A stretch of 64,000 nt of DNA. Source: Candidatus Latescibacterota bacterium (GTDB taxonomy: Bacteria; Latescibacterota; UBA2968; UBA8231). The notes below the pieces were generated by a model. It had not been told where the DNA came from and ran no database searches. It saw only the letters and a list, made by a program, of their open reading frames with translations. Positions 2,267 through 30,613 of the stretch are shown piece by piece. The DNA lies in assembly GCA_965223905.1 (NCBI GenBank), contig CBDCXV010000011.1, positions 1,888,001 through 1,952,000 of the forward strand. Reading direction: 5' to 3'. The position numbers and the translations under genes are program-made. How positions within the stretch are numbered: the stretch's first letter is position 1; each line of letters opens with the position of its first letter.

Positions 2267-3654
2267 AAGACCACGGCAGCTCGCGGGCGCGCCTCCTCAT
2301 CGCCGATGACGAGGTCTTCATCCGCGAGGGGCTGCAGGACGCCCTGCGGGAGCCGGGCCTCGACCTCCAGACCGCCGCGGACGGCCGCGAGGTGCGCCGC
2401 CGGCTGCGCAAGGGGGCCTTCGACGTCATCCTCCTCGACCTGCGCATGCCGGGGGTCTCCGGCATGGACCTGCTCGAGGAAATCCGCGAGCGACACCCGG
2501 AATCGAACGTCGTCATCCTCACCGCGCACGGCAGCGTCAACACCGCGGTCGAGGCGATGAAGAAGGGGGCCTTCGATTTCGTCACCAAGCCGGTCGACCT
2601 CACCCACGTCCGCCTCATCGTCAACCGCGCCCTCGACCGCGTCCGGCTCGTGCGCGAGAACCGCGAGCTGCACGACCGCCTCGGGCGCGGCGACAGCGAC
2701 GACCCCTTCCGGCGCATCGTGCGCCGCAGCGCCTCCATGCAGCAGGCGACGCGCACCGTCAAGCAGGTGGCCATGTCCGACGTCCCGGTGCTGCTCCGGG
2801 GTGAGACCGGGGCGGGCAAGGAGCTGATCGCGCGCACGATCCACGAGCGCAGCCGCCGGCGCGAGGGGCCGTTCGTTGCCGTCAACTGCGGCGGCTTCAC
2901 CCAGGACCTGTTCGGCAGCGAGCTGTTCGGGCACAAACGCGGGGCCTTCACGGGGGCCCACGTCGACCGGCCGGGCCGCTTCGCCGTGGCCGAGAAGGGC
3001 ACCCTGTTCCTCGACGAAGTCGGCGAGATCCCGCTGAAGAACCAGGTCGAGCTGCTGCGCGCCCTCGAGAACCGCGAGTTCCAGCCGCTCGGCGACACCA
3101 AGGTCCACAAGGCGGACGTGCGCGTCATCGCCGCCACCAACCGCCACCTCGAAACCGCGGTCAGCGAGGGCGAATTCCGCGAGGATCTCTTCTACCGCCT
3201 CAACGTCGTGCCGATCGACGTCCCCCCTCTCAGGGAGCGGCGCGAGGACATCCCGCTGCTCGTCGAGACCTTCTTCGACGAGGTCTGCCGGGCCTACGAT
3301 CAGCCCCGCAAGAAAGCCGGCAAGGAGGCTGTCGATCTCTTCGTCTCCTACCACTGGCCGGGAAACGTGCGCGAGCTGCGCAACGTCATACAGCGGCTGG
3401 TGATAACCTGCCCCGAGACCATTATCGAGCCGCAGCACCTGCGCGAGGCACTGGGCGAGGCCGCGGTCGACCAGCCAGGCCCCGGAATGGGGGAATTCAC
3501 CATCTCCCTCGGCTCCTCCATCGAGGACGTCGAAGCGGAGCTGATCCGGCAGACGCTGCAGCGGGTAACCTCCAACCGCCGCGAGGCCGCGGCGGTGCTG
3601 GGAATCAGCGTGCGCTCCCTGCAGTACAAACTCAAGCAGTACAAGCTGACCTGA
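2263..3654 (+). CDS. Sigma54-dependent response regulator (NtrC/AtoC family; REC-AAA-HTH)
   Basis: LIADDE/LLDLRMP receiver, GETGAGKE Walker A, GAFTGA, LFLDEVGE, WPGNVREL, C-terminal Fis HTH. ATGA overlap with the kinase stop. Confidence 0.95.
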   Translation: MKDHGSSRARLLIADDEVFIREGLQDALREPGLDLQTAADGREVRRRLRKGAFDVILLDLRMPGVSGMDLLEEIRERHPESNVVILTAHGSVNTAVEAMKKGAFDFVTKPVDLTHVRLIVNRALDRVRLVRENRELHDRLGRGDSDDPFRRIVRRSASMQQATRTVKQVAMSDVPVLLRGETGAGKELIARTIHERSRRREGPFVAVNCGGFTQDLFGSELFGHKRGAFTGAHVDRPGRFAVAEKGTLFLDEVGEIPLKNQVELLRALENREFQPLGDTKVHKADVRVIAATNRHLETAVSEGEFREDLFYRLNVVPIDVPPLRERREDIPLLVETFFDEVCRAYDQPRKKAGKEAVDLFVSYHWPGNVRELRNVIQRLVITCPETIIEPQHLREALGEAAVDQPGPGMGEFTISLGSSIEDVEAELIRQTLQRVTSNRREAAAVLGISVRSLQYKLKQYKLT

Positions 3655-3790
3655 TCCTCCGCCTGAATGCAATTCTTGCACCAAACTCACCCTGCCGGGT
3701 GCGCCAACGCAGAGACAGGGTCGAGGGCACCTTCCGGTAATTCGCGTAACACAAGGAAAAACAGCAAGTAAACAGTACTTTTTTCCCCCG

Positions 3791-3806
3791 TGGCACCGAG
3801 TTTGCA
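3791..3806 (+). promoter_or_regulatory. Sigma54 (-24/-12) promoter upstream of PTS-IIA/sigma70 genes
   Basis: TGGCACCGAGTTTGCA matches TGGCAC-N5-TTGCA with exact GG-N10-GC spacing. An AT-rich tract lies upstream, and the palindrome TGCAATTCTTGCA is at 3668-3680. Confidence 0.75.
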
Positions 3807-4099
3807 GCGTCCTTTCCCGGCCGGGAGATCATGCGGGCCGCTGCCGAACCAGGATCCGGAAACGACGGGCGGTCGGCCCGCCAGGCCATTGAATCCCACC
3901 GCGCCGGTTCGTTCAGCGACCAGCCCGCGGCAGCAGACCCGGAATATTCCCGATACTGCGCAAATAATGCAGCCCTTCATCGCCTGCGGCCTGATCTCCG
4001 CAGAGCCATAATAAACAACCGGTTACGATGATTTTCCGCGACGCCCTGGACAGCGACGCAGATTTTGCAGCAGACAGCCCTTCGGGGACCGTCACCGCC

Positions 4100-4639
4100 A
4101 TGCCCGGACTGCTCCAAAAGACCATGATGGTCCCCCACCTCCGCTCCGACTCCAAGATCGGCGCCATCAAACAGCTCGTCGACCGACTCTACCGCGGCGG
4201 GCTGCTCAACGACAGCCTCAGCTTCCTGCAGGCGCTTCTCGAACGGGAGAACCTCGGCAGCACGGTGATCGGAGGCACCATCGCCCTGCCCCATGCCCGC
4301 GCCCGCAGCGTCACCGGCCTGGGGATGGCGCTGGGTGTGTGCGAGGAGCCGATCTACTATCCGAGCGGCGACGACCTCTGCGCGGTGCGGGCGGTCTGCG
4401 TGATCGCCGTGCCGATGGACTCCCCAAGCCAGTATCTCGGCCTGCTCTCCCACCTCGCCGGGGCTTTCGGCGACGGCGACTTCGTGCACCGCCTTCTCGC
4501 AGCCCCCTCGGCGCAGGGGATGAGCGAGTTGATGTCGGCCCGGTTGCGCGTTGCCGGAGAGAGGACGGCGGCCAACGTCGGAGAACGCCTCCCCGCAGGT
4601 GCCGCCCTGGCGGGGGCGAACCCGGGAGCCGGCGAATAG
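4100..4639 (+). CDS. PTS IIA (fructose/mannitol/PtsN-like) domain protein
   Basis: LLERENLGSTVIGGTIALPHAR phospho-His motif. Alternative start at 4028. Confidence 0.85.
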   Translation: MPGLLQKTMMVPHLRSDSKIGAIKQLVDRLYRGGLLNDSLSFLQALLERENLGSTVIGGTIALPHARARSVTGLGMALGVCEEPIYYPSGDDLCAVRAVCVIAVPMDSPSQYLGLLSHLAGAFGDGDFVHRLLAAPSAQGMSELMSARLRVAGERTAANVGERLPAGAALAGANPGAGE

Positions 4640-5491
4640 ATGGCCTACTCGGAAGGATTCAGGGAAGAGGAGGGCTCGCTGCGCCTCTATTTCGAGGACC
4701 TCAGCGATTCGACCCCGCTGACGCGGGAACGGGAGGTCGAGCTCTCGGAGCGGATAAAGGCGGGCGACCTCCAGGCCCGGAACGAGCTGGTCCAGGCGAA
4801 TCTCCGCTTCGTCATCGACGTCGCCAAGCAGTATCAGAACCGCGGCCTCGGGTTGTCCGACCTGATCAGCGCCGGCAACCTCGGCCTGATGAAGGCCGCG
4901 GAGCGTTTCGACGGCGAGCGCGGCTTCAAGTTCATCTCCTACGCCGTCTGGTGGATCAGGCAGTCGATCCTGCAGACGATCGCCGACCACGGCCGCACCG
5001 TGCGCCTGCCGCTCAACAAGCTCGCACTGCTCAAGAACATCGGTAAAGCGTCCATGCGGCTCGGCGAGGGCCGCGATTCCGAGCCGCACATCGAGGAGAT
5101 CGCCCAAGAGCTCGAGCTGCCGGAGGAAGAGGTGCTCGACGCGATCATGAGCGCCCGCAGCGTGCGCTCGCTGGACGAGAGCTTCGAAGAGGACGGGGAG
5201 CGCGGCCTCCTGAGCGTCCTCGTCGACGAGAACCAGGTCTCCCCTGACTCCGACCTGATGGAGGACTCGTCGCGCAGCCGGATAGAGGAGATCCTCGCCA
5301 GCCTCGACGAGCGCGAGCTGCTCATCATCCGGCTCTACTACGGGTTCGGGGGAAACGAAAGGATGAGCCTGGAGAAGATCGGCGGGCGCTTGAACCTGAC
5401 CAGGGAGCGGGTCCGGCAGCTCAAGGAACGCGCCCTGAACAAGCTGCGGCATCCCAGCCGCTGCAACGCGTTGATGGCGGTCTGCGACTGA
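4640..5491 (+). CDS. RpoD/RpoS-family sigma70 factor (group 2, no region 1.1)
   Basis: LVQANLRFVIDVAKQY, DLISAGNLGLMKAAERFD, KFISYAVWWIRQSI, region 4 LTRERVRQLKERALNKLR. Confidence 0.93.
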   Translation: MAYSEGFREEEGSLRLYFEDLSDSTPLTREREVELSERIKAGDLQARNELVQANLRFVIDVAKQYQNRGLGLSDLISAGNLGLMKAAERFDGERGFKFISYAVWWIRQSILQTIADHGRTVRLPLNKLALLKNIGKASMRLGEGRDSEPHIEEIAQELELPEEEVLDAIMSARSVRSLDESFEEDGERGLLSVLVDENQVSPDSDLMEDSSRSRIEEILASLDERELLIIRLYYGFGGNERMSLEKIGGRLNLTRERVRQLKERALNKLRHPSRCNALMAVCD

Positions 5492-7183: not shown

Positions 7184-8725
<1,542 letters not shown>

Positions 8726-8853
8726 CTGACCCCCTGCCGGTACCGTGGAACCCGGTCGCCAGGGCATCCTGGACTGCATCTTCGATGCGGCAGGTGTTTG
8801 CCGGGAGGACCGGCGGTGCGGAGGCCGTAACATAGGGCGACCTTCGATATTTT

Positions 8854-8897
8854 CTACATTTATGTCGTGTAAAAATCCGATAACGACATGATTGTTT
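8854..8897. promoter_or_regulatory. Paired upstream activator sites (ACA-N4-TGT) for the amtB promoter
   Basis: CTACATTTATGTCG (8854-8867) and CGACATGATTGTTT (8884-8897), 30 bp apart and ~107-137 bp upstream of a sigma54 promoter. Confidence 0.65.
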
Positions 8898-8990
8898 CTT
8901 GATTCACACGACGTCCCCGCAGGGGTCCATCGAAGACAACCTGTTGTAAACACGCGACTTGCGCGTCCGGACCGGGAAGTTTTTCGCGCC

Positions 8991-9006
8991 TGGCATTCGG
9001 TTTGCA
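8991..9006 (+). promoter_or_regulatory. Sigma54 promoter of amtB-glnK operon
   Basis: TGGCATTCGGTTTGCA (GG-N10-GC), 75 bp upstream of the amtB ATG, which has an AGGAG RBS. Confidence 0.85.
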
Positions 9007-9081
9007 TTCGGTAATGGCTGAAATCGGTTTCTCAATACCGATCGCACCACCCATTCCAAACCGCATCGAAAGGAGTCGGGA

Positions 9082-10488
9082 ATGCGGACCCTGCTCGTTC
9101 CCCTGGCCCTGGCCGCGGCGATGGCGCCGGCCGCTGCCGCTGCCGAAACCCCGGACATCGCCACTCAGCTCTCCGGACTCGCGTCCCAGATCGACTGGTA
9201 CTGGACCTGTGTAGCCGCCTTCCTCGTGTTCTTCATGCAGGCGGGATTCGCCCTCGTCGAGTCCGGGTTCACGCGCGCCAAGAACACCGTCAACATTCTG
9301 ATGAAGAACCTGATGGACTTCTCCGTCGGGGCCATCGCCTTCTGGGCCGTCGGTTTCGGGCTGATGTTCAGCGCCACCACCGGGCTCTTCGGCTGGGGGG
9401 AATTCTTTCCCAACCCGGACGTCAACGCCTTCGGTGAAGATCCGAACTGGATGTACTCCTTTCTGATCTTCCAGACCGTGTTCGCGGCGACCGCGGCGAC
9501 CATCGTTTCGGGCGCCATGGCGGAGCGCACCCGGTTCTCCTCCTATCTCATCTACAGCGTCGCCATCACCGGGATCATCTACCCGATCACCGGTTCCTGG
9601 GCCTGGGGCGGACTCTGGCACGGCGGCGGCTGGCTCGAGGGGCTTGGGTTCGTCGACTTCGCCGGCTCCACCGTCGTCCACAGCGTCGGCGGCTGGGCCG
9701 CCCTGGCCGGGGCCATCGTTCTCGGAGCGCGCAAGGGCAAGTTCAACCCCGACGGCAGCGCCAACGCCATCGTCGGCCACAGCATGCCTCTGGCCGCCAT
9801 GGGGGTGTTCATCCTCTGGCTCGGCTGGTTCGGCTTCAACGCCGGCTCGACCACCTCGATGGACGGCGGCAACTTCGCCCGCGTCGCCTTCGTCACCAAT
9901 CTCGCCGCGGCCGGCGGGGCCCTCGGCGCCATGATCACCAGCTGGATCCGCTTCGGCAAGCCCGACGTGTCGATGGCCCTCAACGGCGCCCTGGCCGGTC
10001 TCGTCGGCATCACCGCCGGCTGCTACACGATGACCCCGATCGGGGGGCTGCTGACCGGTTTCCTCGCGGGAATCCTCGTGGTCTTCTCCGTCCTCTTTTT
10101 CGACAGGATCAAGGTCGACGATCCGGTGGGCGCCATCTCCGTGCACGGGGTATGCGGCGCCTGGGGCACCTTCGCCTGCGCCATTCCCCTCCTCTGCCGG
10201 CCCGGCGAGGCCGCCAGCGTCGCCACCCAGCTGACCGGTATCGGCGCCATCTTCCTCTTCACCTTCGCCGCCTCCCTCGCCCTGTTCTCGACGATCAAGG
10301 CGACCGTCGGCCTCAGGGTCTCTCCAGAGGACGAGGAGGAGGGCCTCGACCTCGTCGAGCACGGCATGAGCGCCTACCACGATCAGTCGCTCGACTCCCT
10401 GATAAAGGCGGCCGGAGCCGCCGAGGGCGGCAGGATCGTCATCGAGCCGGCACCGCGGGGTTCCGGCGTCAACCCAGAAACCACCTGA
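9082..10488 (+). CDS. amtB: Ammonium transporter AmtB
   Basis: FFMQAGFALVESG, DFAGSTVVH, LWLGWFGFNAGS, DDPVGAISVHG (twin His), and a signal peptide. Confidence 0.97.
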   Translation: MRTLLVPLALAAAMAPAAAAAETPDIATQLSGLASQIDWYWTCVAAFLVFFMQAGFALVESGFTRAKNTVNILMKNLMDFSVGAIAFWAVGFGLMFSATTGLFGWGEFFPNPDVNAFGEDPNWMYSFLIFQTVFAATAATIVSGAMAERTRFSSYLIYSVAITGIIYPITGSWAWGGLWHGGGWLEGLGFVDFAGSTVVHSVGGWAALAGAIVLGARKGKFNPDGSANAIVGHSMPLAAMGVFILWLGWFGFNAGSTTSMDGGNFARVAFVTNLAAAGGALGAMITSWIRFGKPDVSMALNGALAGLVGITAGCYTMTPIGGLLTGFLAGILVVFSVLFFDRIKVDDPVGAISVHGVCGAWGTFACAIPLLCRPGEAASVATQLTGIGAIFLFTFAASLALFSTIKATVGLRVSPEDEEEGLDLVEHGMSAYHDQSLDSLIKAAGAAEGGRIVIEPAPRGSGVNPETT

Positions 10489-10518
10489 AGGCCGCGGCGC
10501 CCGAAGGGAGGAGAGAGC

Positions 10519-10857
10519 ATGTACAAGATCGAAGCGTTCTTGCGTCCCAACGCCCTGGAGAAGGTCCAGGAGGGGCTCGCCGGAATCGGTATCGCGGGGA
10601 TGTCGGTGCTGGAGGTGCGGGGATTCGGCCGCCAGCGCGGCCACCGCGAGATCTACCGGGGAGCCGAGTACGCCGTCGACTTCGTCCCCAAGATCAAGAT
10701 CGAGATCGTGGTCAGGGAGAACGAGCGCGACCAGGCGGTGTCGAAGATCGCCGAGGCCGCCCAGACCGGAAACGTCGGCGACGGCAAGGTGTTCGTCGTG
10801 CCGGTCGACCAGGCCGTGCGCATCCGCACCGGGGAAACCGGGGACAGCGCCCTGTAG
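10519..10857 (+). CDS. glnK: P-II nitrogen regulatory protein GlnK/GlnB
   Basis: GFGRQRG..EIYRGAEY T-loop, PKIKIEIV, TGNVGDGKVFV, IRTGE. Lies directly after amtB. Confidence 0.96.
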   Translation: MYKIEAFLRPNALEKVQEGLAGIGIAGMSVLEVRGFGRQRGHREIYRGAEYAVDFVPKIKIEIVVRENERDQAVSKIAEAAQTGNVGDGKVFVVPVDQAVRIRTGETGDSAL

Positions 10858-10879
10858 GTCGCGACCAGGAGCCGGAGAC

Positions 10880-10960
10880 CGCCGCCGCCGCCCGCCAGAA
10901 ATCCACCTCCCGTGGGTACTCAAGGGTGCAGTACCAGGGTGGCGGCGGCGCTCTTTTTTT
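10880..10960 (+). terminator. Hairpin with large structured loop and T-tract after glnK
   Basis: CGCCGCCGCCGCCC pairs with GGGTGGCGGCGGCG around an inner GGTACT/AGTACC stem, followed by CTCTTTTTTT. Confidence 0.5.
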
Positions 10961-11061
10961 GAAGCTCCTGTCTATAAACGGATTTAAACCTTTTCATTAA
11001 GCACCAATCCCTTGAGCCCGGCACCCTGCACGGGGTGTCATACACCAACAGGAGGAGAAAG

Positions 11062-11712
11062 ATGGCAAGGAGAATTCTCACAGCAGTCTTTGCAACGGCG
11101 CTGGCCGCGGCCGTTACCGCGCCGGCGCACGCCGAGTTCGGAGTCGGGGCCGACGCGGCGACGCGCTACATCTGGCGCGGCCTCAGCCTCGACGACAGCT
11201 TCGTCATACAGCCGTACCTGTCGTACGCGACCGAGGCCGGCATCGAGATCGGGGCCTGGTCGTCCTGGTCGCTGACCTCGAGCGGCGCCAACGAGAACGA
11301 CCTGTACGTCAGCTACTCGACGGGGCCGGTCTCGATCGCCCTGACCGACTACTACTTTCCCAACGGGGAGGGAACGGAGTTCTTCACCTACGACGATGAC
11401 GCCGCGATACATCAGCTCGAAGCGATGGTCTCCTTCGCCAGCGGACCGCTGAGCGTGACCGGAGCCCTGATCTTCCTCGGGGCCGCGGGCTCGACCCCGG
11501 TCTACGCCGAGGTCGGCTACGAGTTCATGTCCGGCGACGACGTCTCCGCCGGACTGTTCGCGGGGCTGGGCTCCGAGTCGTACTACACCAGCTCCGGAGA
11601 TCTGGCGCTGATCAACGTCGGTATCGGCGTCTCGATGGGGGACTACTCCGCCCAGTACATCCTGAACCCCGATACCGAGCAGTCGTACCTGGTGTTGATG
11701 AAGGGCCTGTAG
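11062..11712 (+). CDS. TorF-like putative outer-membrane porin (TIGR02001-like)
   Basis: Signal peptide, ADAATRYIWRG, IQPYLSY, GAWSS, ENDLYVSYS. This family is typically found in amtB/glnK operons. GGAGGAG RBS. Confidence 0.7.
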   Translation: MARRILTAVFATALAAAVTAPAHAEFGVGADAATRYIWRGLSLDDSFVIQPYLSYATEAGIEIGAWSSWSLTSSGANENDLYVSYSTGPVSIALTDYYFPNGEGTEFFTYDDDAAIHQLEAMVSFASGPLSVTGALIFLGAAGSTPVYAEVGYEFMSGDDVSAGLFAGLGSESYYTSSGDLALINVGIGVSMGDYSAQYILNPDTEQSYLVLMKGL

Positions 11713-11760
11713 GGCGGCAGCGGACAGGCCGCGCGACCGCCCGCAACGGCGGTGTCCAGG

Positions 11761-11792
11761 GAAGCCCCGGGGGCCGGTTGCCCCGGGGCTTC
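11761..11792. terminator. GC-rich hairpin between porin gene and glnA
   Basis: GAAGCCCCGGGG-N8-CCCCGGGGCTTC perfect 12-bp inverted repeat. Confidence 0.5.
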
Positions 11793-11944
11793 TCGCAATG
11801 AGGCGCATTCCGGAATCGGCTGTTGCGCCCGTTTGATGCAGGTCTGACGCCCCCTATATTCACGGGCTGTTTTTTAACCGGCCGGATTCGCGATTCCAGC
11901 ACTGCGGACTGCTCACGCACCCTATACTCCACGGAGGAACACCA

Positions 11945-13441
11945 ATGGCAAAAGCCAAACCGAAAACCAAAGCTTCACCGAAGGCGAAAGCTTCACCGAA
12001 GGCGAAAGCCAAGGCGGCACCTGCCGCCACCGCTAGGTCGGTCGTCGCCAACGCCAAGGCGCAGGGCGTGCAGATGGTCGACTTCAAGTTCGTCGACTTC
12101 CCCGGCACCTGGCAGCACTTCTCGATTCCCGCCTCGACGCTGGAAGAGGATATGTTCAGCGAGGGCCTCGGATTCGATGGTTCCAGCATTCGCGGCTGGA
12201 AGTCGATCGACGAGAGCGACATGCTCGTCATGCCCGATCCGACCACCGCCTTCCGCGACCCCTTCTGCGAGGTCCCGACCCTGTCGATCATCTGCGACAT
12301 CGTCGACCCGATCACGCGCGAGGACTACGGCCGCGACCCCCGCAACGTCGCCAAGCGGGCCGAGGCCTTCCTGAAGTCCACCGGCCTCGCCGACACCGCG
12401 TACTTCGGGCCGGAAGCGGAGTTCTTCATCTTCGACAGCATCCAGTACGACCAGAACGCGCACTCCTCCTACCACTTCATCGACTCCGTCGAGGGGCGCT
12501 GGAACTCCGGCGCCGACGAGCAGCCGAACCTCGGGTACAAGCCGCCTTACAAGGGCGGATACTTCCCGGTACCCCCGCACGACACGCAGCAGGACCTGCG
12601 CTCGGAGATGGTGCTGACGATGATGGAGGCCGGCGTCGACGTCGAGGTCCACCACCACGAGGTCGGCACCGCCGGGCAGGGTGAGATCGACATCCGCTTC
12701 TGCCCGCTGGTCAGCTGCGGCGACCAGATGATGATCTACAAGTACGTCATCAAGAACGTCGCAAAAAAGCACGGCAAGACGGCGACCTTCATGCCCAAGC
12801 CGCTGTTCGAGGACAACGGCACCGGCATGCACACCCACCAGAGCCTGTGGAAGGGGGGCCGGCCGCTGTTCGCCGGCAACGGCTACGCCGGCCTCAGCGA
12901 GATGGCCCTGCACTACATCGGCGGCCTGCTCAAACACGCCCGCTCCATCCTCGCCTTCACCAACCCGACCACCAACTCGTACCGCCGCCTGGTTCCCGGG
13001 TACGAAGCGCCGGTGAACCTCGCCTACTCGCAGCGCAACCGCAGCGCCGCCTGCCGCATCCCGATGTACTCGGCCAGCCCCAAGGCCAAGCGGGTCGAGT
13101 TCCGCTGCCCGGATCCCAGCTGCAACCTGTACCTGGGGATGTCCGCCATGCTGATGGCCGGCCTCGACGGGGTGCTCAACAAGATCGACCCGGGCGACCC
13201 GATGGACACCGACATCTACGAGCTGTCGGCCGAGGAGCGCGCCTCGGTTCCGCTGACGCCGGCGTCGCTCGACGCGGCCATGGACGCCCTCGAGGCGGAT
13301 CACGACTACCTGCTCAAGGGAGACGTGTTCACCGAGGACGTGATCCAGGCCTGGATCGACTACAAGCGCGAAGAGGAGATCGACGCCATACGGCTGCGCC
13401 CGCACCCGTACGAGTTCGCCCTCTACTACGACATGGTGTAG
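11945..13441 (+). CDS. glnA: Glutamine synthetase type I with Lys/Ala-rich N-terminal extension
   Basis: [69 protein letters not shown] adenylylation-site Tyr. Confidence 0.98.
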
Positions 13442-13496
13442 GTCTGCAAGGCGACTCTGCGGCCGGCGTCGAAGCAGGGCGCCGTCCACCTGGAAA

Positions 13497-13534
13497 GAAG
13501 GCAGGCCGTCCCGGCGACGGCCTGCCTCTTTTTT
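13497..13534 (+). terminator. Intrinsic terminator of glnA
   Basis: AGGCAGGCCGTC-CCGGC-GACGGCCTGCCT followed by CTTTTTT. Confidence 0.8.
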
Positions 13535-13601
13535 GCCTTGCCCGGGAGCCTCGTGCCGTGACCCCCGAACCCGGACCCCCTGCCGAGCGCCGCATTCCCT
13601 C

Positions 13602-14627
13602 GTGGCCGTGGAGCGCTGCGGCGGCGTCTCGAGACTGACCCGCTGCCGCTCCGTCGCCCCGCTCGAGCTGCTCAACCCGCGCGCCGCGGAAGGGTACTGC
13701 CCGGTGATCCTCTCCTCCTGCGGCGGCGGCCTGGTCGAGGGGGATGCCGTCGACCTCGAGGTGCGCTGCGGACCGCGGGCCGCCCTGTTCCTCGGCACCC
13801 AGGCCCTGGGCAAGGTGTACAGGTGCCCGGCGGGCAGCGGCTGCCGCCAGGAGCTGCGCGGCGCCGTCGCCGACGGCGCAACCGCGGTGGTCATGCCGGA
13901 TCCGGTGGTGCCATTCGCCGGCAGCATCTACCGCCAGCGCCAGCATTGGAGCCTGCAGGGGGACGCCGTGCTCCTGCTCGTGGACGGCCACACCGCCGGC
14001 AGGGTCCTGCGCGGCGAGCGCTTCGCCTACCGCGAGTACCGCTCGGACATCGACATCCTCGTCGACGGCAGCACCATCCTCCTGGAGCGCTATTGCTCGC
14101 GGCCCGACGAGCTGCCCCCCGACTCGGCCGGGGCCTTCGGCCGCGGCACCGCCCTCCTCAACGCCTGCGCCGTCGGCGGCGCCGACAGCCGCCGTTTCCG
14201 CTCCCTGACAGAACGGCTGGAAGAGAGCATCCCCCCTGCCGTTGCGGCCGGCCCCGCGGCGTCGAGGGAGGCCGGCTGTCTCGTAGCCCACTCGCGGCCG
14301 CGCGGGGAGGTCTGGGTGCTGCGGGCCCTGGCGGACCGGTGCGAATCCCTCGATCCCCTGCGCCGGCTCCTCGGGGAAGCGGCCGGCATCCTGCTCGGAG
14401 GCAACCCGGTCGAAAGGCTGCTCGGCCGGCCCCCCTCCTGCCTTGAACGACAATTATGTCCTTACGAGAATTTCCGGCTACAAAAATGTCGATCCACTTC
14501 ACCGACTGCCGTCCCCCCCGGTAGACTCGAGCCTCCGCCGAAAAAACCACCTCGGTTCCAACCCTATCCCCGACAAACAGTTGCGCCGGTTGCTCCTACC
14601 GCTTCCGGGAGCGGGTCCGCGGTCTGA
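13602..14627 (+). CDS. ureD: Urease accessory protein UreD (start uncertain; true end probably ~14446)
   Basis: GGGLVEGDAVDLEV, GTQALGKVY, PDPVVPFAGS.YRQ, GRVLRGERFAY. The C-terminal ~60 aa look non-coding and overlap regulatory sites. Confidence 0.8.
   Translation: MAVERCGGVSRLTRCRSVAPLELLNPRAAEGYCPVILSSCGGGLVEGDAVDLEVRCGPRAALFLGTQALGKVYRCPAGSGCRQELRGAVADGATAVVMPDPVVPFAGSIYRQRQHWSLQGDAVLLLVDGHTAGRVLRGERFAYREYRSDIDILVDGSTILLERYCSRPDELPPDSAGAFGRGTALLNACAVGGADSRRFRSLTERLEESIPPAVAAGPAASREAGCLVAHSRPRGEVWVLRALADRCESLDPLRRLLGEAAGILLGGNPVERLLGRPPSCLERQLCPYENFRLQKCRSTSPTAVPPGRLEPPPKKPPRFQPYPRQTVAPVAPTASGSGSAV
14448..14491. promoter_or_regulatory. Paired ACA-N4-TGT sites upstream of ABC/guanidinase/urease operon
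   Basis: CGACAATTATGTCC (14448-14461) and CTACAAAAATGTCG (14478-14491), 30 bp apart. A degenerate sigma54 box TGACCCCTGATTTGCA is at 14625-14640. Confidence 0.65.
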
Positions 14628-14703
14628 CCCCTGATTTGCAAGCGGTGCCGCGTCCCAACGACACGCCTGTTCCGCGCTGCGGATTCAACCCAAGGAGGAT
14701 TTC

Positions 14704-15708
14704 ATGGCACGCACCCGGCTCTGGCGGACGGCCCTGCTGACCGCCGGCTTCATCGTCACCACGGCCGCCACCGGCCTCGACGCCAAGCTCAAGATCGGCT
14801 ACAGCGACTGGCCCGGCTGGGTCGCCTGGGAAATCGGCATTCAGAAGGGCTGGTTCGCCGAAGCGGGGGTCGACGCGGAGTTCATCTGGTTCGAGTACGT
14901 CCCTTCGATGGACGCCTTCGCCGCCGGCCAGGTCGACGCGGTGGCGATGACCAACGGGGACGCCATGGTCATCGGCTCGGCCGGCAAGGCCTGCAAGGGA
15001 ATCATCCTCAACGACTACAGCAACGGCAACGACATGGTCGTTGCGCGGCCGGGGATCGGCGCGGTTGCGGAGCTGAAGGGGATGAAGGTCGGCGTCGAGC
15101 TCGGCTTCGTCTCCCACCTGCTGCTGCTGACGGCGCTCGAAGCCAACGGCATGCAGGAAAGCGACGTCGAGCTGAAGAACATGCCGACCCACGAGACCCC
15201 GCAGGCGCTCGCCTCCAAGGGGGTCGACGCCATCGTCGCCTGGCAGCCCAACTCGGGGCAGGCCCTCAACCTGGTCGCCGGCTCGAAGCCGGTCTTCACC
15301 AGCGCCAACGCCCCGGGCATCATCTACGACCTGCTCTACGTCAGCAGCGAGAGCCTGGCGGCAAACCGCGGCGACTGGAAGAAGGTGGCCGGGGTCTGGT
15401 ACCGGATCGTCGACTACCTCGCCGACGAGTCGAACCGCGAGGAAGCCCTGGGGATCATGAGCGCCCGGGTCGGCCTCACCCCGGAGCAGTACGCCCCCTT
15501 CACCGAGGGAACCTACATCCTCTCCCTCGAAGAGTCGGTCGAACGCTTCGCCAAGGCGGAGGGCCTCGGCTCGGTCTACGGATCGAGCGAGGTCGCCGAC
15601 CGCTTCAACCTCGCCAACAAGGTGTACGACAAGGCGCAGGCCGTCGACTCCTATCTCGACCCCTCGCTGGTCATGGAGTACGCCGGAAAACTGGCGAAGA
15701 AGGAGTAA
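14704..15708 (+). CDS. NitT/TauT-family ABC substrate-binding protein (guanidine/urea-associated type)
   Basis: Signal peptide, [53 protein letters not shown]. Confidence 0.88.
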
Positions 15709-15764
15709 GGCGCCTGACAACCCGGTAGCCGCCGCACGAACCACCAACCCAGGAGGAACCGAAG

Positions 15765-16936
15765 TTGCCGTTCTACCAGAACCACGCCCCGGGATTGCGC
15801 GGCCACGAGCGCCCCGTCCCCGACCTCTCCCACCTGCGGGGGTGGAAGGCCCAGGACGCCGAGGCCGGGCTCGGCGACGAGCAGTGGGCGCGCCGAGGCG
15901 GCGAGGGGGCTCGAGCTCGGCCTCGAGGCGGCCGCCTCGATCGAGGACCGCGAGGAGATCAGCTGCTTCCAGCGCGGCGAGCTGCCCCACTGGTCGGGGA
16001 TCAACACCTTCCTCAAGTGCCCGTTCCTCGAGGACGTTCCCCGCGTCGGCGAGTACGACGTCGCCTTCCTCGGCGCCCCCTTCGACATCGGCACCACCTA
16101 CCGCTCCGGGACCCGCTTCGGGCCCCAGGGCATGCGGCGCATATCCTCCCTCTACACGCCGTACAACTTCGAGATGGGGATCGACCTGAGGGAGTCGCTG
16201 AAGATGTGCGACCTCGGGGACGTCTTCTGCCCCGCCAACATCACCAAGAGCCACGACCAGATCGCCAAGGCGGTCGCCCATGATCATCGGCAGCGACACC
16301 CTGCCGATGATCATGGGAGGGGACCACTCGATCGGCTACCCCTGCGCCCGCGGGGTCGCCGAGTGCGTCGAGGGCAACATCGGCATCATCCACCTCGACC
16401 GGCACGTCGACACCCAGGAGCGGGACATGGACGAGATCATGCACACCTGCCCCTGGTTCCACGCCACCAGCATCCCCAACTGCCCGCCCGCCAACCTCGT
16501 GCAGCTGGGGATCGGCGGCTGGCAGGTGCCGCGCGCCGGGGTGCGCCACGGCCGCTCGATGCGCTCGACGGTGCTGACCATCGACGACATCGAGACCCTC
16601 GGGATCGACAAGACCCTGGAGATCGCACTCGAGGTCGCCTGGAAGGGGGCCAGCGCCGTGTACCTCTCCTTCGACATCGACTCCGTCGACGCCGGGTACG
16701 TGCCCGGCACCGGCTGGCCCGAACCGGGCGGGTTCCTGCCGCGGGAGGCGCTGGCGCTGCTGCGCGGCATCGCCGCCGAGGGGATCGCCGCCATGGAGGT
16801 GGTCGAGGTCGCTCCCCCCTACGACGTCTCCGACATCACCGCCCTGCTCGGGGTGCGCGCCATGATGGACGTGCTGGCGGCGATGGTGGGCAACGGCCGC
16901 ATAGGCGGCAAGCTCGCGGCAGGGGCAAAGGGATGA
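15765..16936 (+). CDS. gdmH: Guanidine hydrolase (GdmH-like arginase/agmatinase family), two apparent +1 frameshifts (~15893, ~16278)
   Basis: Joined frames give RGELPHWSGINTFLKCP, GTTYRSGTRFGPQGMRRISSLYTPYNFEMG, GGDHSIGYP, HLDRHVDTQE..DEIMHTCPWFHAT, LVQLGIGGWQVPR, SFDIDSVDAG.VPGTGWPEPGG. These match the Synechocystis Sll1077/GdmH motifs as I recall them. Confidence 0.8.
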
Positions 16937-17977
16937 GCGAGGCCGCGGCAGCACCCCCCGCCCCCGCGCCGCAGGAGTCCACCGCGGCCGGTCCGGCCTT
17001 CGTCATCGCCGGGGACGCGGGCACCGCGGGCGACCGCGGTCTCACCGGAACGGTGGCGGCCGGCGCCTCCAAGGCGCTCGGCTTCGACGCCCCCCTGTTC
17101 GGCGCGGCGATGGCCGAGGCGGGACCTTTCGGCGCCGGCCCCGGGGACTGCGGCCTCGACCCGGTGCTGGAGCGCTGTATCGAACAGGGACACGACGAGC
17201 TCTTCCTGCTGCCGTTCACCTCGGGGTTCGACCTCTTCCGCAGGCAGGCGTTCGCCGAGAGCATCGCCCGCGCCCGCAGGCGCTCCGGAAACGCCCGCAT
17301 CTTCTGCGACGAGCCCGACCTGTGCGAGCCGCTGCCGGTGCGGGCCTTCGCCGACTCCGCCCTGGCGGCGCTGGACCGGGCCGGGGTGCCTCCAGGCGAG
17401 GCGCACCTCGTCGTCGTCTCCGGCGGCCAGGGGGACGCCGCGGACCGCGCCCGCGTCTACCGCCTCATGCGCCTGATCTGGGAGGAGGTGGGAGCGAAGA
17501 AGGGGGACGCAGCCTTCCTGTACTGCGATACTCCCCGGCTGGAGGCCGCCCTCGAGGAAGGGGAAGGGCCCCGCCTGCTGGTTCCCCGTCATCGTCGCCG
17601 AGGCCGGGGCGCGCAAGCTGTTCCTGCGACGGGTGCGGGCTAGGGCCGCGGGCCAACCCCCCGGGGCGCCCTGCCTGGTCGGGGACTTCGCCGACGGCCA
17701 TCCGAACATCGCTTCCTGGCTGCAGGCGCGCCTGCTCAGGTTGTGGAACTCGCACCGCTCCCGCGCCGCGGCGCGCCTGCCCAACGCCCGCGGCGCCGGC
17801 GGCAGGCAACGCTCCGTCCTCTCCGGGCCCGGCCGCCGGCTCGCGGTCGCCGACCTCGGAGACCGCATCCCCGAAGACATCGCCTACGGCCCCGGAGTGG
17901 TGGCGAGGATCTTCGATACCGAAAGCCTGGAGAAGCTCCTCGACCGCTTCGGCATCCGCGGCGACCCGGTCTTCGTC
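16933..17977 (+). CDS. Degenerate CbiX/SirB-like chelatase-fold protein (frameshift ~17585), running in-frame into permease fragment
   Basis: ATGA overlap with gdmH stop. [43 protein letters not shown] and GHP.I patterns resemble two-domain CbiX, but the His ligands are missing. Confidence 0.5.
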
Positions 17978-18510
17978 ATCCTGTGCGGCACCTTCCACTT
18001 CTTCGCCCGCCTCACCGAGCCGTTCGTCGACTTCATCCGCTACATGCCGGCGCCCGCCTTCGGCGCCCTCGTCGTCGCCTTCGTCGGCATCAACGACGCC
18101 CCCAAGGTCGCCATCATCTTCGTCGGCACCTTCTTCCAGATGGTGCTCGTCGTCGGCAACACCACCCGCCTGCTCGAGACCTCCCTGATCGAGGCGGCGC
18201 AGACCCTGGGGACGCGGCGCAAGCAGCTGATCCTGCACGTGATCGTCCCGGGGATCCTGCCCAACCTCTACCGCGACCTGCGTATCCTGCTCGGCTGGGC
18301 CTGGACCTACCTGATCGTCGCCGAGCTGATCGGGGCCAGCTCCGGGATCAGCTACTTCATAAACCAGCAGGCGAAGTACCGGAACTACGACAACGTCTTC
18401 GCCGCCATCGTCATGATCGGCATCATCGGGCTGACCACCGACCAGGTCCTCGGGCTCATCGAGCGCTTCCTGTTTCCCTGGGAACGCGGCAGCCGCGGGC
18501 TGTCTTCCTC

Positions 18511-18514
<4 letters not shown>
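17978..18514 (+). CDS. NitT/TauT ABC permease, N-terminally truncated and fused in-frame to upstream ORF
   Basis: [34 protein letters not shown] (EAA motif), [19 protein letters not shown]. Has no own start or first TM segments. Confidence 0.8.
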
Positions 18515-19413
<899 letters not shown>

Positions 19414-19418
19414 AGCGC

Positions 19419-20186
<768 letters not shown>

Positions 20187-20204
20187 CACCGGGAGAACGA
20201 CCGC

Positions 20205-21918
20205 ATGGCACGAACACTGGACCGGCGCGCCTACGCCGACATGTACGGACCGACCACCGGGGACCGGGTCCGCCTCGGCGACACCGCGCTCGAGGTGGTT
20301 GTCGAGGAGGACGCCAACCTCTACGGGGAGGAGTGCAAGTTCGGCGGCGGCAAGGTGCTGCGCGACGGCATGGGGCAGGCCGCCGGGGCGACCGGGGCGG
20401 AGGCCCTCGACCTGCTGATCACCAACGCCCTCGTCATCGACCACGGCGGCATCCGCAAGGCCGACGTCGGCATCAAGGGGGGCCGCATCCTCGGGGTCGG
20501 CAAGGCCGGCAACCCCGACATCATGCCGGCCGTCGATGCCGGGATGGTCGCCGGGGTGACCACGGAGGTGATCGCCGGAGAGGGGCTGATCCTGACCGCG
20601 GGGGCGCTCGACGTCCACGTCCACTTCATCTGCCCGCAGCAGGTGGAGGAAGCGGTCGCCTCCGGGATCACGACGATGATCGGCGGCGGCACCGGTCCGG
20701 CCACCGGCACCAACGCCACCACCTGCACCCCGGGGGCCTTCCACATCGAGACCATGCTCAGGGCGAGCGACGCCTGGCCCCTGAACTTCGGCTTCCTCGG
20801 CAAGGGGAACTCCTCCTTCCCGGAGGGGCTGCGCGGGCAGGTCCGGGCCGGGGCCTGCGGTCTCAAGCTGCACGAGGACTGGGGCACCACCCCCGCGGCG
20901 ATCGACACCTGCCTCGCCGTGGCCGAGGAGGAGGACATCCAGGTCGCCATCCACACCGACACCCTCAACGAGTCCGGCTTCGTCGAGCAGTCGCGGCAGG
21001 CGTTCAGGGGCCGCACCATCCACACCTACCACACGGAAGGGGCCGGCGGCGGCCACGCCCCCGACATCATACGGCTGTGCGGGGAACAGAACGTGCTCCC
21101 CTCCTCGACCAATCCGACGCGGCCGTTCACGGTCAACACCATCGACGAGCACCTCGACATGCTGATGGTCTGCCACCACCTCGACAGGAACATCCCGGAG
21201 GACGTCGCCTTCGCCGAAAGCCGCATCCGCAAAGAGACCATCGCCGCCGAGGACATCCTCCACGACATCGGGGCGTTCTCCATCATCGCCTCGGACAGCC
21301 AGGCGATGGGACGGGTAGGCGAGGTCGTCTGCCGGACCTGGCAGACCGCCCACAAGATGAAGCTGCAGCGCGGCCCCCTTCCCGGGGACCGGGGGACCGG
21401 CGCCGACAACCTCAGGGTGAGGCGCTACATCGCCAAGTACACCATCAACCCGGCGATCGCCCACGGCGTCAGCCGCCACGTCGGCTCGGTCGAGGCGGGC
21501 AAGCTCGCCGACCTCGTGCTCTGGAAGCCGGCCTGCTTCGGCTCGCGGCCGGAAATGGTCGTCAAGGGCGGGGTCATCGCCTGGTCCCAGATGGGGGGAT
21601 GCCAACGCCTCCATACCGACCCCCGAGCCGGTCATTCCCCGGCCGATGTTCGGCGCCTTCGGGAACGCCATAGGTCGGACGTCCCTGAGCTTCGTCTCGC
21701 GGAACGGAGCCGAGGCCGCGGCCGGGTACGGCCTGGCGAAGGCGGTCGCCCCGGTCGAGTCCTGCCGGGGGCTGGGGAAGAGGGACATGATCCTCAACGA
21801 CCTCACCCCTGAGATCGAGGTCGACCCGGAGACCTACAAGGTGCGCGCCGACGGAGAGGTGCTGACCTGCGAGCCCGCGGCCAAGCTGCCCCTCGCCCAG
21901 CTCTACAACCTCTTCTGA
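20205..21918 (+). CDS. ureC: Urease alpha subunit (one +1 G in homopolymer at 21593-21598)
   Basis: [52 protein letters not shown]. After removing one G it continues [14 protein letters not shown]...[10 protein letters not shown]. Confidence 0.95.
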
Positions 21919-21942
21919 GCGGCAGCCGGTCCTGTTGGACGT

Positions 21943-22215
21943 GCAGCGCCCCGGCGCGAGGATGGAAACCGGTTGCTGAAGGGCCAGACTCCATGAGAAC
22001 GGACTCCACCATCGAGACGGGCCGTGGGGCCGTGGCCGGGATGGACCGACGGAACTTGCAGCGCCTCACCCCAGGGATGAGATCGGTTGATGAAGGCCAG
22101 ACTCCATGAGGCAGAATCCGGCTGTCGAGGCGGGGGCGTGGCCGTTGCCACGGATGGATCGGCCGAACCACCGCCAGCGACCATGACACAGGACCCTGCC
22201 ATCGAGGCAGAACCC
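21943..22215 (+). repeat. Degenerate ~115-bp tandem duplication between ureC and ureF
   Basis: Copies start ~21943 and ~22058 and share GCAGCGCC..AGGGATG..CGGTTG.TGAAGG(G)CCAGACTCCATGAG..TCGAG..GGATGGA. A partial third copy runs into the ureF start. Confidence 0.6.
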
Positions 22216-22920
22216 GGAACCGTCTCCGGTGCCGTCAAAAGCGGCGATCCCCTGCTGCTGCTGTTGCAGCTCGGAGACGCGGCGCTGCCGACCGGGGGCT
22301 ACGCCTTTTCCGGGGGCCTGGAGGCGGCACGGCAGCTCGGCCTGGTCGCCGACGGGGCCGGTCTGCACCAGTTCGCGCGCCAGGCGCTGCGCACCGCGGG
22401 CACCTGCGAGCTCCCCTTCCTGCGCGCGGCCTGGCGGCTGGCGCGGCCGCCGGGGACATGCCTCGTGGAGCTGGGGCAGCGCTACGACGCCTTGCAGACC
22501 GCGGCCTGCGGGCGCCAGGCGAGCCTGAAGACCGGGCGCGGCTGGCTGCGCCTGTTCGCGCGGCTGTTTCCCGGTCCCGGCCAGCGCCGCATCGCGCGCC
22601 TCTTCTCAACCGGGGGGACCCCCCCGCACGGCTGCATCCTTTTCGGGGCCTGTCTCGGCGCCGCCGGCGTCGGCGAGGAGGAGGCCGCCGCCCTGTTCCT
22701 GCACCAGCAGCTGCGCGACCAGCTCGGGGCCGCGGTCCGCCTCGGCATCGTCGGCCCGCTCGAGGCGGTGGAGCGCCACGCCGCCCTGCGCCCCGAGTGC
22801 GCCAGGGCTGCCGGGGCCTCGCGCCTGATCCCCTGCGATGAGGCAAGCCGAGGCGCGCCCCAGCTCGACCTGGCGCAGGCCGCGCACGGACACCTGTACT
22901 CGCGGCTGTTTCAGAGCTGA
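22183..22920 (+). CDS. ureF: Urease accessory protein UreF
   Basis: LLQLGDAALPTGGYAFSGGLEAA, AAVRLGIVGP, C-terminal HGHLYSRLFQS. Confidence 0.92.
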   Translation: MTQDPAIEAEPGTVSGAVKSGDPLLLLLQLGDAALPTGGYAFSGGLEAARQLGLVADGAGLHQFARQALRTAGTCELPFLRAAWRLARPPGTCLVELGQRYDALQTAACGRQASLKTGRGWLRLFARLFPGPGQRRIARLFSTGGTPPHGCILFGACLGAAGVGEEEAAALFLHQQLRDQLGAAVRLGIVGPLEAVERHAALRPECARAAGASRLIPCDEASRGAPQLDLAQAAHGHLYSRLFQS

Positions 22921-23033
22921 TCCGCTGTCAACGAGATCACCATGCCCGCTCACAGCTACGATATCACCGGCCGCCAGGGACACCTGAAATCACCCTTGTT
23001 CCATAAGCTGACCTGCCGCCTGCGGAGACCGAC

Positions 23034-23756
23034 ATGCACACCCACAGCCACGATACCGAAAACGGGCACGGCCACAGCCACGCCGACGATCCGGGATCCT
23101 TCGCCGCCCGGGAGGGGATGGCCAGGGGCAGGGACTTCGAAAGCCGCGCCTTCACCGCCGGCATCGGCGGACCGGTCGGCAGCGGCAAGACCGCGCTCGT
23201 GAAGGCCCTTTGCGAAAGGCTGCGCTCCGGCTGCGAGCTCGGGGTGGTGACCAACGACATCTTCACCCGCGAGGACGCCGACTTCCTCGTCCGCCACGAC
23301 GCCCTGCCCGGTGACCGCATCATCGGGGTGGAAACCGGCGGCTGCCCGCACGCGGCAATCCGCGAGGACATCGGCCTCAACCTCGACGCCCTCGATACCC
23401 TGATGGAGCGCTGCCGCCCCGGTCTGCTCCTGCTCGAAAGCGGCGGCGACAATCTCGCCGCGCACTTCAGCAGGGAGCTCGTCGACTACGCCATCTACGT
23501 GATCGACGTCTCCGGCGGCGACAAGATTCCGCGCAAGGGAGGGCCGGGGATCACCCAGTCCGATCTGCTGGTGGTGAACAAGATCGACCTCGCGGGCTTC
23601 GTCGGAGCCGACCTCGAGGTGATGGCCCGCGACGCGCGCAAGATGAGAGGGGAGGGCCCCACGGTCTTCACCTGCATCGCCGACGGCACCGGCGTCGACA
23701 GGGTGATCGCCCACCTGATGGCCGCCCGCGAGCAGGCCGCGGGCGTTCTTCTGTAG
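23034..23756 (+). CDS. ureG: Urease accessory GTPase UreG with His-rich N-terminus
   Basis: [54 protein letters not shown]. Confidence 0.97.
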
Positions 23757-24079
23757 TCGGTCGCTGGAATAGCCGACCCGGGCTGCGGCCGGCCCGTCGC
23801 GGTCGCGATCCCCAGCAGTTCGTGTCAGAAACCTGGCCGTTCCCTGGCGCTCTCCAGAGCCTTCCGAAGGCTGGCGTTGCCTTCCTCCCGAATCCCAGGC
23901 GATTCGATTCGATCCCGCTCCCTGTCTTCCATCGCGCCATGACCCGGCCCCGCCTGGAGAGCCATTGTACCGACAAGGCTGTAAAGCCCTTGATCGGTCT
24001 GTTGATCGGTCCGGGGCCGCTTCTATATTCGGGCGACCCACGTCCCCCCTTTCCCTTCGGCAGAATCCCCCCGTCACCA

Positions 24080-30608: not shown

Positions 30609-30613
30609 ACGAC

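Follow-up and report, generated by a model that had tools for sequence, protein, structure and literature searches.

Does a run of nitrogen genes that seems complete from its list of parts still encode a working route from guanidine to glutamine? The question is raised by a 64-kb stretch of DNA from Candidatus Latescibacterota bacterium (assembly GCA_965223905.1, contig CBDCXV010000011.1), hereafter called the window, in which genes for ammonium transport and glutamine synthetase, a urease, and a guanidine hydrolase of the GdmH type with an ATP-binding cassette (ABC) importer are all located on the + strand between positions 9082 and 23756, as assigned with Pfam and NCBIfam. Their order is amtB-glnK-porin-glnA-ureD-(binding protein-gdmH-accessory::permease-ATPase)-ureAB-ureC-ureF-ureG. 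The preliminary description regarded this region as a complete cluster. Its parts list stands in that all components lie on the + strand within these limits, but the urease operon is interrupted between ureD and ureAB by the guanidine block, no ureE was found in that operon by Pfam, and half of the permease is deleted. Completeness has to be given up, as a deletion of 1.35 kb has taken half of the permease gene and half of an accessory gene, and frameshifts are added to it. The region is very probably a real nitrogen-assimilation neighbourhood in which deletion and frameshifts have turned the guanidine pathway into a relic.

As the G+C content of the window ranges from 57 to 74%, genes were placed by third-position G+C and then confirmed with Pfam and NCBIfam. 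A hidden Markov model of G+C by codon position, run across the 64 kb, detected four same-strand frame switches without a stop codon, at 15887/8, 16280/1, 17558/9, and 21593/4, and none elsewhere; all four are contained in about 8.1 kb of the approximately 55.5 kb of coding sequence, for which the chance is about 4.5 × 10^-4 if switches are evenly spread. The lesions were mapped by tblastn with the proteins P0004 and P0007 for gdmH, with proteins of the related locus L002 for the accessory and permease genes, and with UreC of L012; by both methods the frameshifts noticed earlier are real features of the sequence. The gdmH pseudogene (15765–16936, +) is distributed over three frames, and one uninterrupted frame of about 385 codons is not present. 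Its first insertion is an extra G in a tggg sequence at 15885–15888, the second an extra base at 16282/16283, outside any homopolymer.

The start codon of the next gene overlaps the gdmH stop codon (ATGA). This is the remnant of an accessory gene (16933–17977, +), identified by tblastn with a 618-aa protein of L002, and it retains about 343 of about 600 codons, corresponding to an N-terminal part that resembles class II chelatases (CbiX/SirB). Residues 12–186 of the L002 protein are matched in one frame and residues 251–343 in the next, with the frameshift in a C run at 17584–17587; the unshifted reading is shown by P0244. At a deletion junction between 17977 and 17978 the remnant is fused in frame to the C-terminal 172 codons of a gimB-like ABC permease gene (17978–18514, +; Pfam BPD_transp_1), which match the L002 permease from residue 148 onwards with 85% identity, and the open reading frame (ORF) after gdmH itself has no Pfam match before this permease part. 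Relative to L002 the deletion comprises about 1.35 kb, i.e., the last ~275 accessory codons, the intergenic spacer, and the first ~147 permease codons; the resulting chimera is devoid of the N-terminal helices of the permease and of the entire conserved C-terminal domain of the accessory protein. The GimABC-type importer is thereby incomplete, with its binding protein and ATPase intact and its permease missing the first ~147 residues.

The urease operon is affected as well, with ureAB, ureF, and ureG intact, ureC frameshifted, and the stop codon of ureD lost. In ureC (20205–21918, +; 570 codons if read through) a +1 frameshift in a six-G run at 21593–21598 separates the part that matches residues 1–466 of L012 UreC from the part that matches residues 466–572 in another frame. 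In ureD (13602–14627, +; Pfam UreD positions 2–200 of 201) a C run at 14430–14435 is one base short relative to the frame of P0517, a 99% identical relative of 296 aa; the two proteins are identical at 277 of 278 positions up to GRPP, after which P0517 ends as GRPPLLP. Because of the missing base the window ureD has its last three residues replaced and is extended by a 63-residue tail into the intergenic region.

These lesions can be arranged in a succession. The ancestral module inserted in the urease operon would have encoded a GimA-like binding protein, GdmH, the accessory protein of about 600 aa, a GimB-like permease, and a GimC-like ATPase, and, judging from characterised homologues, would have served the import of guanidine, its hydrolysis by GdmH to urea and ammonium, the hydrolysis of the urea by urease, and ammonium assimilation by glutamine synthetase. 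In this genome a single deletion of ~1.35 kb has removed the accessory C-terminal domain and the first ~147 permease codons and left a chimeric ORF. Smaller lesions came later: gdmH acquired two single-base insertions, the chimera and ureC were each frameshifted once, and ureD lost its stop. Owing to the deletion and these small lesions the guanidine route is predicted to be non-functional here, and the urease is probably non-functional too. The frameshifts are thus most probably real and inactivating, and the use of guanidine as a nitrogen source, which had been proposed for this organism, is unlikely for this genome.

Much depends on whether the small indels exist in the cell or arose in assembly. 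If they were assembly errors, gdmH, ureC, and ureD would be intact, only the permease and accessory genes would have been lost, and guanidine would still be hydrolysed with the aid of another uptake system and chaperone-independent nickel loading. Several points favour such an explanation and weigh against decay. Long-read assemblies err in G or C runs, which is where the ureD indel and three of the four frameshifts are located, and all indels were judged from assemblies; the ureC shift, present in two assemblies, might be a systematic error at the six-G run. When gdmH is read through, with X at both breaks, its product is identical to the intact P0372 at 373 of 390 positions (96%) and keeps every conserved motif, therefore any inactivation must be recent. 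Furthermore, according to the available part of PMC11410670, the comammox guanidinase needs neither a known chaperone nor an ABC importer to work, hence the loss of the accessory and permease genes alone would not prove that guanidine use has been lost. Such an origin of the indels is nevertheless improbable, given that all the frame switches are crowded into 8 kb of 64 kb, that one gdmH insertion is outside a homopolymer, and that relatives sharing the deletion show different lesions in these genes, whereas all 17 listed instances of control genes are intact.

The relatives deserve closer description. Six protein sequences, each from a different contig and that of the window among them, have an identical chimeric junction, recognised by an 11-residue peptide; the other carriers are P0244, P0376, P0374, P0375, and P0392. 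As the junction recurs in six sequences while P0245, 97% identical over the common part, has normal permease sequence upstream of the junction, the deletion is real and polymorphic among close relatives, judging by these alignments. It could be argued that selection maintains the chimera as a functional fusion protein and that it is no pseudogene, since P0244 and P0376 contain it as an uninterrupted ORF of 517 aa, which leaves room for a function. That is very unlikely, as the N-terminal permease helices and the whole accessory C-terminal domain are gone and four of the six chimeras have a further frameshift or deletion: P0374 and P0375 share a frameshift immediately after YMPAP, different from that of the window, and P0392 has an additional in-frame deletion of 46 residues. 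Even the two uninterrupted chimeras lack a conserved 9-residue stretch, kept in the window, that spans near-invariant positions of the family.

Other genes of the module are disturbed in a similar way. Among the ten members of the GdmH cluster at 90% identity only P0372 (389 aa) and P0004 (366 aa, with a later start) are uninterrupted; P0367 diverges at the C-terminus, and six members are N-terminally short (206–299 aa), although some of the short ones, on contigs of 14–16 kb, may reflect contig ends or start calls, which again weakens the case for decay. In P0371 residues 1–156 of the binding protein are fused to GdmH through a deletion of ~710 nt. Nine of the 15 listed members of the UreC cluster (19 in total) are 570 aa long; P0383 shows the same G-run shift as the window ureC and also lacks the His of AIHTDTLNE, and P0382 is truncated at a different place. 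As controls, six genes (encoding UreG, CobA/HemD, Fe-ADH, Zn-ADH, a 725-aa protein, and an 841-aa protein) were inspected on three other large chimera-bearing contigs, where all 17 listed instances are full length; a uniform length across relatives is also seen for AmtB, GlnK, the regulator, the ATPase, and UreAB. Because the lesions are limited to the guanidine and urease genes, differ among relatives, and include large deletions, they indicate decay under relaxed selection and not random error, the small indels of the window itself probably being part of it. It is also worth mentioning that split tblastn matches in gdmH, ureC, or ureG were obtained in other loci from large-contig assemblies, i.e., for gdmH of L001 (9693–10714) and the urease genes of L022, L023, and L066, so frame breaks are not unique to the lineage of the window.

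An undamaged form of the locus appears to be preserved in a close relative. Its contig of 18,241 bp contains, in the gene order of the window, MCY3761408 for the sigma-54 regulator, followed by 409 (AmtB), 410 (P-II), 414 (binding protein), 415 (GdmH), 418 (ATPase), and 419 (urease gamma, partial). We infer that the two genes between gdmH and the ATPase gene, 416 and 417, are a separate accessory gene and a permease gene; the assignment was made from position, a further point to be set against the scheme of decay from an intact module.

The substrate of the arginase-family enzyme can be deduced with some assurance. The Protein Data Bank (PDB) entry 9FEK is the guanidinase of Nitrospira inopinata and 7OI1/7ESR are those of Synechocystis GdmH, as given in the available text of PMC11410670. 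The C-terminal piece of the window gdmH (16202–16933) scores 269.2 bits against 9FEK and 262.9 bits against 7ESR/7OI1, with the next family, 3-guanidinopropionase, at only 105.5 bits, and the N-terminal piece (15889–16281) scores 188.6 and 181.3 bits against the same two guanidinases, with guanidinobutyrase next best at 65.1 bits; the pieces are thus nearer to the characterised guanidinases than to agmatinase, guanidinobutyrase, guanidinopropionase, arginase, or metformin hydrolase. All of the motifs GGDHS, DRHVD, SFDIDSVD, and GTGWPEPGG are found in the pieces, and GGDHS, DRHVD, and SFDIDxxD we take to be the metal-ligand motifs of ureohydrolases. The active-site Trp of GTGWPEPGG corresponds to Trp305 in Synechocystis and Trp313 in N. 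inopinata, as stated in the part of PMC11410670 at hand.

The related-loci search matched at least 592 stretches, 512 of which encode relatives, and the best 80 of these 512 were used for counts, which therefore describe a similarity-biased subset. In a maximum-likelihood tree of 78 GdmH rows from related loci and the window read-through (L001, L005, and L026, without a single uninterrupted match of 340 residues, were omitted) three Latescibacterota GdmH genes form the sister group of the window gene with support of 100/98. On account of the guanidinase matches, the motifs, and this placement, the gene is, as had been surmised, a GdmH orthologue, predicted to specify guanidine hydrolysis, and not an agmatinase or guanidinobutyrase. 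The database names, ‘agmatinase’ or ‘agmatinase family protein’, and the NCBIfam agmatinase matches, all of them sub-threshold and the only ones obtained, would speak for an ancestral agmatinase or guanidino-acid hydrolase, but the characterised guanidinases score 160 or more bits above any other solved family member and the neighbours are a GimABC-type transporter and a urease, so that such a specificity is hardly to be expected.

Genes in good condition lie next to the relic; amtB, glnK, and glnA are intact in this genome. The ammonium transporter gene amtB (9082–10488, +; Pfam PF00909, E = 1.6 × 10^-118) encodes 468 aa, as do 14 of 15 listed members of its cluster, one having 467 aa, and glnK (10519–10857, +; PF00543) encodes a P-II protein of 112 aa, the length of all 15 listed members. 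The ‘porin’ gene (11035–11712, +) encodes a putative outer-membrane barrel of the TorF/Gcw_chp family (PF09694, E = 2 × 10^-7), for which the NCBIfam TIGR02001 match falls below the cut-off. It is followed by glnA (11945–13441, +), an open frame for a type I glutamine synthetase (Gln-synt_C, E = 1.7 × 10^-134, and Gln-synt_N). Within the guanidine block the gimA-like gene (14704–15708, +) for a periplasmic binding protein of the NMT1/SsuA type (Pfam NMT1_2/NMT1) is intact with 334 codons, 14 of 15 listed cluster members being 334 aa long; its top NCBIfam match, TIGR03427 (a ‘urea-carboxylase-associated’ ABC binding protein), is below the cut-off. The gimC-like ATPase gene (18511–19413, +; ABC_tran) is likewise intact with 300 codons, shared by 12 of 15 listed members. 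By Pfam and NCBIfam the ABC system belongs to the GimABC/NitT-TauT type, in line with the importer proposed earlier, and guanidine import is its predicted function.

Of the urease genes, ureA and ureB (gamma and beta) are fused in one frame (19419–20186, +; Urease_gamma and Urease_beta) of 255 codons; this fusion is stable among relatives, as 13 of 15 listed cluster members have 255 aa. The ureF gene (22183–22920, +; 245 aa; UreF positions 1–149 of 151) has an identical counterpart in the protein collection, and the intact ureG (23034–23756, +) encodes 240 aa with a His-rich N-terminus (TIGR00101, 279.6 bits, above the cut-off), a length found in five of six cluster members. In this region only UreG matches the cobW/HypB/UreG domain, which bears out the earlier statement that no HypA/HypB-like gene is present. 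Another gene of a nickel-linked family occurs 10 kb from the urease genes: at 32445–34923 a protein with a LarA N-terminal-like domain (PF09861, E = 2.9 × 10^-11) adjoins a Zn-dependent alcohol dehydrogenase.

How would such a locus be regulated? Control by sigma-54 and a NifA-like activator had been suggested for the whole region. An activator gene is indeed present upstream (7184–8725, +), encoding 513 aa with GAF, AAA+, and HTH_8 domains, its score against TIGR01817 nifA of 511.6 bits being slightly below the cut-off of 528.85; an identical 513-aa protein occurs in the collection, its length being that of 14 of 15 listed cluster members. A sigma-54 -24/-12 promoter-like element, TGGCAT-N5-TTGCA (8991–9006, +), lies 76 nt before the amtB start. 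Scanning the window with at most one mismatch gave two matches against 1.2 expected by chance, therefore it is the position and not the number that argues for this element; with two mismatches there were 14 matches against 19.3 expected. No such element precedes glnA or ureD. A candidate at 14625–14640, before the guanidine block, was rejected since it has GA where GG is required, and the 250-nt spacer before the binding-protein gene contains only this match lacking GG. About 100 nt upstream of the amtB element a repeat search found an inverted repeat with 13-nt arms 14 nt apart (8856–8895, +), possibly a binding site of the activator. After glnA there is a strong hairpin resembling an intrinsic terminator (13499–13527, +; 12 pairs, nine of them G-C, and a T run).

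It is plausible that the NifA-like activator and the sigma-54 promoter drive amtB-glnK; glnA follows with a terminator of its own, and the operon ureD...ureAB-ureC-ureF-ureG with the inserted guanidine module comes next. The proposal of sigma-54 control thus holds for the upstream activator, but with an element only before amtB and a terminator after glnA its extension to the guanidine and urease genes finds no support in the promoter scan. Rfam was run on the whole window at the gathering score and on 8600–24000 at E ≤ 5, and no guanidine riboswitch was found at either setting, as the preliminary description had remarked; among 15 related loci also scanned a guanidine-I aptamer was detected only in L073 of Bacillota, a short distance before gdmH, where at 80.7 bits it served as the positive control, and none was found in the nine scanned loci that bear the accessory gene. 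An Rfam match to 5_ureB_sRNA, antisense in ureC (20358–20652, −; 47.7 bits, above gathering), was attributed to conservation of the coding sequence and set aside, as the ureC of L012, an unrelated locus of Acidobacteriota, gives this match too (14592–14895; 100.7 bits). A second nitrogen-regulation block is situated at 584–5488: a histidine kinase gene (HisKA and HATPase_c) ending at 2266 is followed by an NtrC-type response regulator/sigma-54 activator gene (~2270–3651), a perfect -24/-12 element, TGGCAC-N5-TTGCA (3791–3806), before a gene for a phosphotransferase-system EIIA-2 (PtsN-like) protein (3995–4636), and a gene for a sigma-70-family factor (4640–5488).

The accessory protein, reduced to a remnant in the window, is a regular companion of GdmH in related loci. 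Among the 68 informative loci, i.e., those in which the sequence continues for at least 2 kb beyond gdmH, the accessory gene with both domains directly follows gdmH in 61, its N-terminal part only in one, and neither domain is found in six; the linkage spans at least six phyla. A HypB-like gene is near gdmH in four of the 80 loci (L075, L077, L078, and L079), none of which has the accessory gene. One of these, the marine Planctomycetota locus L075, has a second, divergent GdmH paralogue directly after gdmH (10821–11846), 58–62% identical to the window pieces. In the GdmH tree all 62 partner-linked rows fall in one clade with support of 100/100, which also contains the window and five rows without a detected partner, three of them with less than 900 nt of downstream sequence. 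UreC is inside the locus in 15 of the 80, and the binding protein and ATPase are both inside in 44 of the 80. In the cultured Singulisphaera acidiphila (DSM 18658, locus L051) gdmH (9565–10719) and its partner (10734–12551) form a two-gene unit among unrelated neighbours, with no transporter or urease nearby.

The full-length accessory protein of about 600 aa gave an AlphaFold model with a mean predicted local distance difference test score (pLDDT) of 87.2. Its first ~255 residues match the SirB/CbiX class II chelatases (Foldseek E = 8.5 × 10^-10 with a target template-modelling (TM) score of 0.75; profile E = 2 × 10^-4), and Pfam CbiX matches the L002 protein with E = 3.9 × 10^-10. In the alignment of 23 rows (L035, a wrong-frame ORF, L024, and L042 were excluded) the GHGS/GRGS-type motif of chelatases, whose His is presumably the catalytic residue in class II enzymes, is not conserved (SGHGD, GGQGD, DGQGE, SGEDD), its position being occupied by H, Q, E, T, or A, so that the family departs from class II chelatases at this point. 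Invariant His and Cys residues occur in WHG (twice) and CCD. The C-terminal ~330 residues, modelled alone, gave a pLDDT of 90.8 and a predicted TM score of 0.92; this domain has no relative in the PDB by profile (best E = 0.87) or by fold (none at E ≤ 0.001), and Pfam DUF362 is matched sub-threshold only, in six of the 23 members. An Atlas structure search aligned residues 320–622 of P0126 with a DUF362 cluster at a TM score of 0.88, and a profile of the domain found 233 representative proteins at E ≤ 0.001 among 1.84 billion, including stand-alone forms of ~300 aa. DUF362 and DUF2088 both belong to Pfam clan CL0471, DUF2088 being used there for LarA homologues, in the portion of PMC11770544 consulted. 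No NCBIfam model covers the accessory protein, the names given in the sources being ‘hypothetical protein’, ‘CbiX/SirB N-terminal domain-containing protein’, and ‘sirohydrochlorin ferrochelatase’. No published description was found in titles and abstract openings for CbiX with guanidine or in the titles listed for DUF362, a search that left aside supplements and the 2022 description of GdmH, and CbiX is mentioned in neither PMC12704784 nor PMC11410670.

A tentative proposal is that this protein may be a new dedicated maturation factor of GdmH, a nickel insertase of the major non-cyanobacterial clade that replaces GhaA/GhaB, and that the lineage of the window may represent a loss series in which the deletion in the accessory and permease genes was followed by the decay of gdmH and urease. 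There is about an even prospect that it does not load nickel and has another guanidine-linked role, such as a second enzymatic step, sensing, or protection against guanidine: the CbiX-type motif position is unconserved, the C-terminal domain is without a solved structural relative, and a complex prediction for GdmH residues 10–385 with the full accessory protein lent no support to binding (score 0.00, mark 0.32), a result that speaks neither for nor against it. Set against such a role are the position directly after gdmH in 61 of 68 informative loci of at least six phyla, the absence of the gene from all four loci with a HypB-like gene, the two-gene unit of S. acidiphila, and the combination of a chelatase fold with invariant His and Cys. 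The sharing of UreG for nickel loading, put forward earlier, becomes an unnecessary assumption, as relatives carry the accessory gene after gdmH and the window has its remnant.

The best-characterised counterpart is the gdmH-ghaA-ghaB/gimABC locus of Synechocystis sp. PCC 6803 (sll1077–sll1082), the GdmH of which is ~60% identical to that of the window over the aligned parts. In the available text of PMC12704784, GimABC is the guanidine importer, with a Kd of 97 nM for GimA, GhaA and GhaB are maturases, and NtcA together with a guanidine-I riboswitch controls the guanidine genes. The two loci share a NitT/TauT-type ABC importer adjoining gdmH, the handing over of urea to urease, and a link to nitrogen-limitation genes. 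Unlike Synechocystis, the window has neither the riboswitch nor the HypA/HypB-like GhaA/GhaB, in whose place it has the chelatase-like plus DUF362-like accessory gene; its module lies inside the urease operon beside amtB-glnK-glnA, its nearby regulator is a sigma-54 activator and not NtcA, and its copy is a pseudogene array. The guanidinase of N. inopinata is the best PDB match of the C-terminal piece, and neither locus has a HypA/HypB-type chaperone; what sets the comammox locus apart from the window is its guanidine-I riboswitch and the presence of an APC-family permease without an ABC importer, as far as the consulted part of PMC11410670 goes. The comammox loci lack nickel chaperones, and nickel loading there is called unclear in the same portion of that paper.

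Clusters of Bryobacterales and other Acidobacteriota (e.g., L009, L010, L012–L015, L021–L023) contain genes for the binding protein, the ATPase, GdmH, and the accessory protein of ~600 aa, directly followed by ureF-ureD-ureAB-ureC-ureG; there the block precedes the urease operon instead of being inserted in it, most loci have intact genes, and amtB, glnK, and glnA are not adjacent. The class II chelatases SirB/CbiX (PDB 5ZT7–5ZTA, 6JV6) share the fold of the first ~255 residues of the accessory protein, which differs from them in having the extra DUF362-like domain of ~330 residues, in the unconserved GHGS-type motif, and in a gene context of guanidine hydrolysis, not tetrapyrrole synthesis. 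The window thus contains a known system, that of GdmH, in a new arrangement: a guanidine module in a urease operon by amtB-glnK-glnA, which has a chelatase-like/DUF362-like partner but neither a riboswitch nor HypA/HypB-type loaders.

The rest of the window has features of its own. A stretch at 29980–32505 is low in G+C (57% against ~67%) and was called non-coding by the composition model; it contains an ORF of 519 aa (30614–32173, −) with an HTH_17 domain and a DNA-methylase fragment, and may be foreign or mobile DNA. At 37767–58784 on the − strand there is a run of very large genes (655–1489 aa), mostly without Pfam matches, which includes those for a DUF6785/DUF6784 protein, a 1489-aa FtsX-like permease protein, and proteins that end in FlgD_ig/CHU_C-type sorting domains, a gene content compatible with a bacterium of the FCB group.

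The hydrolysis of guanidine by GdmH has been recognised as a nitrogen route only recently, and it has so far been characterised in one cyanobacterium and one comammox Nitrospira. A large GdmH clade of soil and sediment phyla (Acidobacteriota, Planctomycetota, Myxococcota, Verrucomicrobiota, Latescibacterota, and Poribacteria) is organised differently, having no riboswitch and no HypA/HypB-type loaders, being often joined to urease, and carrying a conserved two-domain partner behind gdmH. This partner protein is a concrete candidate for the question raised by the comammox paper of how nickel is delivered to a guanidinase without a known chaperone. As to the organism itself, the presence of genes alone overstates capacity, and because the module is a relic in this lineage, metabolic predictions based on annotation would mislead.

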